The notes below the pieces were generated by a model. That model had not been told where the DNA came from. It worked only from the letters and a program-made list of their open reading frames with translations, and ran no database searches. Source: Escherichia coli (GTDB taxonomy: Bacteria; Pseudomonadota; Gammaproteobacteria; Enterobacterales; Enterobacteriaceae). From it: a stretch of DNA of 64,000 bases. The stretch is taken from the NCBI RefSeq assembly GCF_050320075.1, contig NZ_CP190018.1; one strand, 5' to 3'. This document shows, piece after piece, positions 55,489 through 57,612 of this stretch. The translations under genes were made by a program, and so were the position numbers. Positions within the stretch are counted from its first letter, which is position 1. Every line of letters starts with the position of its first letter.

Positions 55489-55980
55489 TTAATCGCGGAA
55501 GTTTTTGAACTGGAACGGCTGACCGAGATCGCCACCACGTACCATCGCCATGACAGCCTGCAAATCATCACGAGATTTACCCGTTACGCGGATCTCATCA
55601 CCCTGAATTTGCGCCTGCACTTTCAGTTTGCTGTCTTTGATCATCTTGACGATTTTCTTCTGGGTCGCGCTCTCAATGCCCTGTTTCAGTTTCGCTTCCA
55701 CAAACCAGGTTTTACCGCTATGAACGATATTTTCCGGTACATCCAGTGAACTGCCTTCAATGCCGCGCTTCAGCAGCTTGGCACGCAGAATATCCAGCAA
55801 CTGATTGACCTGGAAATCGGACTCGCTCAACACTTTGATGGTTTTGCTGGCGTCGTTCAGCTCAAATGAGGCTTCAACATTACGGAAGTCAAAACGGGAC
55901 TCCACTTCGCGGCTCGCGTTATCGACCGCGTTACGTGCTTCCTGAAGATCAACTTCAGAGACAATATCGAAAGATGGCAT
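55489..55980 (-). CDS. yajQ: Nucleotide-binding protein YajQ (UPF0234)
   Basis: ORF track 219 aa; true start [22 protein letters not shown] (163 aa). Confidence 0.92.
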
Positions 55981-56057
55981 CTTTTCCTCTCCCTTCATTT
56001 TTGATGCGAAGCATAATACCTGCAAAGTTAAATAACCAACAGTCCTGCACCAGGACG

Positions 56058-56105
56058 TATCCCTTAATTGTGCATAGTCGCAACAGCATGCACAATTAAG
56101 GGATA
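56058..56105. repeat. Perfect 18-bp inverted repeat with 12-bp spacer in yajQ-panE divergent intergenic region
   Basis: TATCCCTTAATTGTGCAT - AGTCGCAACAGC - ATGCACAATTAAGGGATA read directly; a second small palindrome GTCCTG-CAC-CAGGAC lies just upstream (56042..56056). Confidence 0.6.
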
Positions 56106-56147
56106 GCCTTATTGAACACCCGGAGTGGTTGCGGGTGAGGAGGAACA

Positions 56148-57612
<1,465 letters not shown>

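Follow-up and report, generated by a model that had tools for sequence, protein, structure and literature searches.

The Escherichia coli DNA analyzed here, a stretch of 64 kb referred to below as the window, carries a long perfect inverted repeat between the divergently oriented genes yajQ and panE. The locus raises the question of what such symmetry is for. The original prediction regarded it as more typical of a dimeric regulator operator or of a structured RNA element than of chance. The palindrome proved to be real and functional, but it is very probably not an orphan operator. The reading that we prefer, with a probability of roughly two thirds, comprises two layers: an inserted hairpin that is cut by RNase III, which has been published, and a pair of mirror-image promoters, which we infer.

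The inverted repeats of the yajQ-panE intergenic region

A repeat search returned an 18-bp perfect inverted repeat with a 12-nt spacer at 56058-56105, just as had been described, and its arms (56058-56075 and 56088-56105) were 100% complementary. The second palindrome, GTCCTG-CAC-CAGGAC, was located at 56042-56056. As the original prediction stated, the repeat lies between divergent starts, namely the start codons of yajQ (55980, minus strand) and panE (56148, plus strand), which are separated by an intergenic region of 167 nt. The gene names are those of the RefSeq annotation under sequence matches. The elements of the two palindromes and a third hairpin are as follows.

56058-56075, no strand assigned: left arm of the large palindrome, TATCCCTTAATTGTGCAT
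56076-56087, no strand assigned: loop (12-nt spacer) of the large palindrome, AGTCGCAACAGC
56088-56105, no strand assigned: right arm of the large palindrome, ATGCACAATTAAGGGATA, which includes the published RNase III position 56090
56042-56056, minus strand: small palindrome GTCCTG-CAC-CAGGAC, a 6-bp hairpin at nt 6-20 of the P2 yajQ mRNA
56117-56137, plus strand: 6-bp hairpin CACCCG-N9-CGGGTG, directly before the panE Shine-Dalgarno sequence

The symmetry indeed goes beyond chance. The repeat is the longest perfect one in the window when loops of up to 30 nt are allowed (the runner-up has 12 bp), and in 40 copies of it simulated with a first-order Markov model the longest perfect inverted repeats measured 9-14 bp. 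Within the window the arm sequence matched only itself (0.04 expected from shuffles). Folded as RNA, the 48-mer reached -26 to -27 kcal/mol on either strand, with z values of -8.6 and -7.7 against shuffles, and the large stem was retained in folds of the whole intergenic region. Its dyad centre is at 56081.5.

Published positions were converted from MG1655 (NC_000913.3), where the window position equals 500663 - x; U00096.2 coordinates are 776 below those of NC_000913.3, which was checked with the yajQ gene coordinates printed in the supplement. Over the 167 intergenic nucleotides the window differed from MG1655 at 56021 and 56038 only, outside both palindromes, and a 351-bp query across the locus was 100% identical to E. 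coli strain 118UI. Two small open reading frames, 55866-56099 (plus strand) and 55955-56095 (minus strand), run across the palindrome; relative to the yajQ start, they are either antisense or in a different frame.

Several familiar identities were tried and rejected. The large hairpin was not called as an intrinsic terminator on either strand in a terminator scan. A permissive comparison with Rfam families gave two chance-level snoRNA hits only (E = 4-8), neither of them on the palindrome. REP/BIME and ERIC elements are likewise palindromic, intergenic, and hairpin-forming as RNA; the palindrome differs from them in being single-copy per genome. A dispersed repeat, including a MITE, was rejected on this count, with one locus per E. 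coli genome; the two places reported for the sequence can most likely be explained by self-matching of the palindrome on either strand. Collections of phages and plasmids gave no phage match, and the full-length matches labeled as plasmids were megabase E. coli records, presumably mislabeled chromosomes.

The 6-bp hairpin CACCCG-N9-CGGGTG ahead of panE is a separate element. In 13 aligned sequences its pairing was complete (100%), one pair covaried from U-A to C-G, and the motif recurred in most of 80 Enterobacteriaceae loci; it had no match in Rfam. It could be a leader stabilizer or serve translational control of this pantothenate gene.

RNase III cleavage and the transcripts that cross the palindrome

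The original prediction knew of no regulator assigned to the repeat. At the post-transcriptional level this statement is outdated, as RNase III had been published for the exact site. In the study of Gordon, Cameron, and Pfleger (mBio 2017, PMC5371410), an RNase III site is entered as "Intergenic (panE-yajQ)"; its coordinate, MG1655 444573, corresponds to window position 56090 in the right arm, and the site is among the eleven that were verified in that study. At 444573 there were 96 reads in the rnc mutant and 2-3 in the wild type, i.e. 30-50-fold fewer in the wild type, in RNA-seq that was apparently not strand-specific. T7 transcripts of both orientations, made from templates whose primers map to 55936 (plus) and 56286 (minus), were cut in vitro by purified RNase III, and 5' RACE of the panE-sense RNA revealed several cleavage sites. 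The half-life of yajQ mRNA was ~6 min in the wild type and ~3 min in the rnc mutant (PMC5371410). The core identity of the palindrome, an RNase III-cleaved hairpin at the yajQ/panE leaders, has therefore been known since 2017; a paper on p19-captured double-stranded RNA made no mention of the locus. What is expected of an RNase III substrate was found here: the perfect stem of 18 bp provides about two helical turns, and its transcription in vivo is evident from the yajQ 5' end at 56247 and from the reads over 56090 in the rnc mutant. Of the two options first considered, the structured RNA element thus stands, as a published RNase III substrate, and nothing was found in support of the operator of a dimeric regulator.

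The hairpin resembles the RNase III leader hairpins of rnc, pnp, phage T7 R1.1, and the adhE 5' UTR, in which a long, near-perfect leader stem is cut and the stability of the mRNA shifts. In contrast to rnc and pnp, yajQ mRNA is steadier with RNase III than without it, i.e. the effect is reversed. The stem also differs from those hairpins in being entirely Watson-Crick paired without an internal loop, in overlapping apparent core promoters, and in being made from both DNA strands, as the two divergent genes have overlapping leaders.

Transcripts that could carry the stem follow from 5' ends mapped in other studies.

56103, plus strand: capped panE-yajL 5' end (SMRT-Cappable-seq, PMC6131387), 7 nt past CACAAT
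56061-56063, minus strand: yajQ P2 5' ends, 56061 from SMRT-Cappable-seq and 56063 from Cho 2014
56013-56018, minus strand: -10 element TATTAT of yajQ P1, with 5' ends at 56006 and 56005 (SMRT-Cappable-seq and Cho 2014)
56254-56259, minus strand: -10 element TACAAT of yajQ P3, with its 5' end at 56247 in the panE coding sequence (Kim 2012 and Cho 2014)

Supplementary Data 2 of the SMRT-Cappable-seq study (PMC6131387) places the panE-yajL start at MG1655 444560 on the reverse strand (window 56103) and yajQ starts at 444602 (56061) and 444657 (56006). In the Cho 2014 tables, yajQ starts are given in U00096.2 coordinates at 443640, 443824, and 443882, corresponding to 56247, 56063, and 56005, and all three are assigned to sigma-70/sigma-S; Kim 2012 also lists 443640. 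The accessible part of those tables contains no panE start, and the panE end at 56103 rests on a single dataset. The accessible part of the Cappable-seq supplement (PMC4782308) contains no positions at the yajQ-panE locus. According to the authors of SMRT-Cappable-seq, primary RNA was recovered 1200-fold better than processed RNA, and 93% of the reads began at start sites annotated before.

The yajQ leader from P3 is ~267-273 nt long, includes the whole palindrome, and runs antisense to the panE 5' region; the hairpin was kept in its minimum-energy and centroid folds. With 142 reads, the P3 start ranked highest of the three yajQ starts in Cho 2014. P3 RNA is antisense to the leader and the first ~100 nt of the panE coding sequence, and P3 RNA and panE mRNA could pair as an intermolecular RNase III substrate.

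Transcription in the opposite direction is suggested by the element GCATAATACC near yajQ, which was conserved in all loci aligned and in which TATTAT (56013-56018, minus strand) overlaps CATAAT (56012-56017, plus strand). In Klebsiella pneumoniae, a panE start has been mapped 7 nt past the CATAAT of GCATAATACC, and by analogy the E. coli counterpart would be 56024. Warman et al. (bioRxiv 10.1101/2020.01.31.928960) described bidirectional promoters with overlapping -10 elements and starts 7-25 bp, mostly 18 bp, apart. The element GCATAATACC falls into this class, as yajQ P1 (56006) and the predicted panE start (56024) are 18 bp apart. With one yajQ promoter inside panE and a predicted distal panE promoter next to yajQ, the palindrome can be transcribed both ways. 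We thus regard yajQ and panE as having interleaved promoters and overlapping leaders, with plus-strand read-through inferred only from the K. pneumoniae start.

In the RNA layer of the preferred reading, which published experiments show, long leaders from these interleaved promoters carry the palindrome and fold it into the 18-bp hairpin. RNase III cuts the hairpin, and yajQ mRNA lasts about twice as long with RNase III present.

The surroundings of GCATAATACC showed a further symmetry. In most genera it is flanked by an inverted repeat of 6-10 bp, GCGTTGCA-TAATACC-TGCAACGC or GTTGCG-N12-CGCAAC, which looks like an operator centered on the bidirectional -10. It was seen in loci L004, L009, L059, L064, and others (intergenic positions ~20-50), and the corresponding stretch of the window is 56001-56030. 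In Escherichia and many Citrobacter only 3 bp of the repeat are left, and both lineages with the large palindrome are among these.

Distribution and constraint

The panE loci of 80 species, with intergenic lengths of 113-337 nt, were compared. The palindrome is invariant in Escherichia and absent from most genera sampled. The perfect 18-bp repeat was confined to Escherichia, where the window, E. albertii, and E. whittamii have it, and in ten members of the Citrobacter freundii group the corresponding position was occupied by an imperfect homologue. The element was missing from Salmonella, C. koseri, the C. amalonaticus group, Enterobacter, Klebsiella, and every other genus sampled. From this restricted distribution at a single spot, we deduced that the palindrome is a lineage-specific insertion of ~50-60 bp just downstream of the ancestral panE -10, as judged from sequence comparison.

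That -10, GCGCTATACT, is present in nearly all genera, and the alignment shows a TGCACC-containing sequence in its stead in Escherichia. A role of the conserved GCGCTATACT element as the driver of panE in E. coli was consequently ruled out. The site of the ancestral -10 (TATACT) is occupied in Escherichia by the small palindrome, which contains TGCACCA; when this place was inspected visually for a full NtrC dyad or a sigma-54 promoter, a single TGCACCA half-site was all that was seen. Followed by TGTTGGTTATTT, the small palindrome has a terminator-like score on the minus strand, with a weak tail. It could attenuate yajQ-sense transcripts from P3 and P2 or be a 5'-proximal hairpin of the P2 mRNA. 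Strain APEC E16002 has C in place of T at 56046, a variant in which the pair survives as G·U on the yajQ-sense strand only.

Other lineages have taken up sequence in the same region. Unrelated insertions were observed in Raoultella, Kluyvera, Intestinirhabdus, and others (loci L022, L039, L046, L049, L057, L058, and L063-L074), and that of Intestinirhabdus comes immediately after the ancestral panE -10. Together with the length range of 113-337 nt, these insertions indicate that the yajQ-panE control region is insertion-prone.

Within Escherichia, sequence comparison points to strong constraint on the palindrome. Between E. coli and E. albertii there were no differences in its 48 positions, loop included, and none in the 42 positions of the panE leader, against 4 of 21 in the adjacent spacer; at third codon positions, 29% differed in panE and 14% in yajQ. 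The loop of E. albertii was identical, and that of E. whittamii differed by one base. The locus was matched in 5424 of 5426 complete E. coli genomes, 5124 of which were identical to the window over 71 bp, and eight sampled E. coli genomes including MG1655 had no variants in the large palindrome.

The Citrobacter homologues were examined as RNA and as DNA. In 13 aligned sequences (12 of them distinct), 88% of helix cells were paired and three pairs had changed on both sides, counts that overstate independent events because the Citrobacter sequences are closely related; the register nevertheless beat all slid controls, and RNAalifold recovered the stem from the alignment. The ATTGT/ACAAT core of both arms was invariant in Citrobacter, and the other positions covaried or formed G·U pairs. 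As evident from the G·U cells, of which the panE-sense strand had 35 and the yajQ-sense strand 3, and from fold energies of -16 to -23 kcal/mol for the panE-sense and -7 to -15 kcal/mol for the yajQ-sense RNA, the two strands are not equivalent. Taken together, this asymmetry and the energies indicate that the Citrobacter hairpin has been selected as a panE-sense RNA stem. Two -10-like elements, CATAAT and TATACT, both lie upstream of the palindrome homologue in Citrobacter.

Promoter-like elements in the arms and alternative explanations

The 5' ends at 56103 and at 56061-56063 occupy mirror positions about the dyad centre. The original prediction had overlooked these ends, which mark the outer limits of the palindrome and are preceded by -35-like and -10-like hexamers borne by the arms.

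56068-56073, plus strand: -35-like TTGTGC of the inferred panE promoter
56091-56096, plus strand: -10-like CACAAT of the inferred panE promoter, 17 bp past the -35-like hexamer
56090-56095, minus strand: -35-like TTGTGC of the inferred yajQ P2 promoter, the mirror of that for panE
56067-56072, minus strand: -10-like CACAAT of the inferred yajQ P2 promoter

Each arm carries TTGTGC on one strand and CACAAT on the opposite strand, offset by one base, and the minus strand reads the same TTGTGC-17-CACAAT because the repeat is perfect. As a -10 element we accepted a hexamer with A at position 2 and T at position 6 that ends 6-8 nt ahead of a mapped 5' end, and as a -35 element a hexamer 16-18 bp upstream of it; such a pair was present on both strands, with the -35 hexamer at 17 bp. 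From the end of CACAAT to the 5' end there are 7 nt for 56103 and 6 nt for 56061. A configuration of the TTGTGC-17-CACAAT type was found at 0.16% of window positions. The strength of the hexamers is modest, with 3 of 6 consensus matches for the -35 (its TTG core is kept) and 4 of 6 for the -10, and a stricter promoter scan of the region called no promoter, TTGTGC being below its threshold. In 10 of 10 Citrobacter homologues a mirror promoter-like pair was also present, TTGTAC-18-AACAAT on the plus and TTGTTC-18-TACAAT on the minus strand, in stems whose other positions vary.

Escherichia lost its ancestral proximal panE -10, the hexamers have canonical spacing, and the ends come from methods that enrich primary RNA. 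On these grounds the arms were read as promoters: the published 5' ends and the sequence suggest that they double as the panE promoter and yajQ P2, a mirror-image pair of the sigma-70 type. Two fully overlapping, outward-directed promoters would thereby produce panE mRNA from 56103 and yajQ P2 mRNA from ~56061, and in Escherichia the palindrome promoter would replace the ancestral panE -10 that changed from TATACT to TGCACC. The loop (56076-56087) makes up most of the 17-bp spacer of both inferred promoters on both strands. A promoter role leaves the invariant outer 9 bp of each arm and the invariant loop in Escherichia unexplained.

In strain 13TMH22 (NZ_CP019256.1, locus L083), an IS1203 element of the IS3 family sits in the right arm at ~56093-56095 with a CAA target duplication and splits the palindrome. 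The terminal TCA of IS1203 and CAAT re-form CACAAT ahead of panE.

Overlapping divergent promoters of a similar build are known. The ilvY-ilvC and Tn10 tetA-tetR pairs are built round operators of a known regulator, IlvY and TetR, respectively. They are alike in firing outward, in having -10 and -35 regions that overlap on opposite strands, and in having starts ~40-45 bp apart, so that RNA polymerase cannot fill both at once; the starts at the palindrome are 42 bp apart. In contrast to those pairs, the overlap at the palindrome is an exact dyad without a known regulator. The bidirectional promoters of Warman et al. share with it the principle that symmetry lets one stretch of DNA serve as a promoter on both strands. 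The palindrome nevertheless falls outside their class, given its start separation of 42 bp and an arrangement in which each -10 overlaps the -35 of the other promoter.

The promoter layer and the RNase III layer compete for the same 5'-end data, and cleavage fits these data too, which makes it a serious rival. On this explanation the palindrome would act as RNA only and have no promoter activity, the true starts would be distal (~56024 on the plus and 56247 on the minus strand), and 56103 and 56061-56063 would be products of RNase III. Such an origin is consistent with the published cleavage in both orientations and with the multiple sites on the panE template (PMC5371410). Symmetric cuts are to be expected when the stems of the two RNAs are identical, and the ends sit 3-4 bp above the base of the perfect stem, where the implied staggered cut encloses two C-G pairs, in line with the in vivo rule (PMC6212723). 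The position of the K. pneumoniae panE start far upstream, at the conserved CATAAT, agrees with it as well, and so does the G·U asymmetry in Citrobacter, which speaks for selection as panE-sense RNA. However, the yajQ end was called a start by two chemically different methods that enrich primary ends, and SMRT-Cappable-seq has the 1200-fold preference for primary over processed RNA given above. The hexamers, moreover, lie at exactly the canonical distances, the rare configuration noted above, and are kept on both strands in Citrobacter, and the ancestral proximal panE -10 has been lost in Escherichia. Cleavage as the sole source of these ends is accordingly judged unlikely, although it is the strongest of the alternatives.

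That a dimeric or tetrameric DNA-binding regulator controls both divergent genes from two 18-bp half-sites is improbable. The perfect symmetry, the full conservation of loop and arms between E. coli and E. albertii, and the overlap of the palindrome with both inferred core promoters are what an operator would show. Long palindromic operators do occur in such places: bioO is a 40-bp palindromic BirA operator between the divergent bio promoters. The palindrome resembles bioO in its length and in covering divergent promoters of vitamin-biosynthesis genes; it differs in lacking a known cognate repressor and in evolving like an RNA stem. A regulator or binding data for the large palindrome were not found in the literature searched. 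An NtrC gSELEX peak lies in the yajQ-panE spacer, at 443846 in old coordinates (~56041), with a modest intensity of 41%, and was the only in vitro protein-DNA signal found there; it adjoins the TGCACCA of the small palindrome and is off the large one. The distance of 30 bp between the half-site centers is unusual for a single dimer, and the arm has no further copy in the window or in E. coli genomes and hence no regulon. Furthermore, the Citrobacter arms drift by compensatory and G·U changes and the loop varies freely, as is typical of an RNA stem.

Less probable still is a cruciform, extruded by negative supercoiling between the divergent promoters and shutting both embedded promoters as a topological feedback. 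The perfect 18-bp arms exactly between outward-firing starts are what invites the idea. A central spacer of 12 nt, such as the palindrome has, strongly disfavors cruciform extrusion on kinetic grounds, and the Citrobacter copies fold well as RNA despite their imperfect symmetry as DNA. Least credible of all is a functionless relic of an insertion or template-switch event: despite the absence of the palindrome from Salmonella, C. koseri, Enterobacter, Klebsiella, and the other genera sampled and the unrelated insertions at the same spot elsewhere, it has no substitution in its 48 bp between species whose synonymous positions have diverged by 14-29%, it is near-invariant in 5424 genomes, and its biochemical activity has been published.

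The two-layer reading was therefore retained: a 48-bp palindrome that was inserted into the shared control region of yajQ and panE-yajL, acts there as a hairpin in RNA, and would also act as promoter DNA. A more far-reaching version is held only tentatively, at somewhat less than even odds. The 48-bp palindrome would be a cassette, gained in the lineage of Escherichia and Citrobacter freundii, that supplies both promoters and insulates the RNA through RNase III cutting of read-through transcripts, and in Escherichia it would have taken over from the ancestral panE -10. Perfect symmetry would be maintained because both strands must meet the constraints of a promoter and of a stem.

Beyond the published work, the analysis adds the probable mirror promoters, the lineage-specific insertion that displaced the panE -10, and the strand-asymmetric RNA constraint in Citrobacter. 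One short palindrome may thus act on two levels, its DNA serving as a promoter pair and its RNA as an RNase III target, and the locus illustrates how, in a single genus, an insertion can reorganize the region that controls two conserved housekeeping genes.
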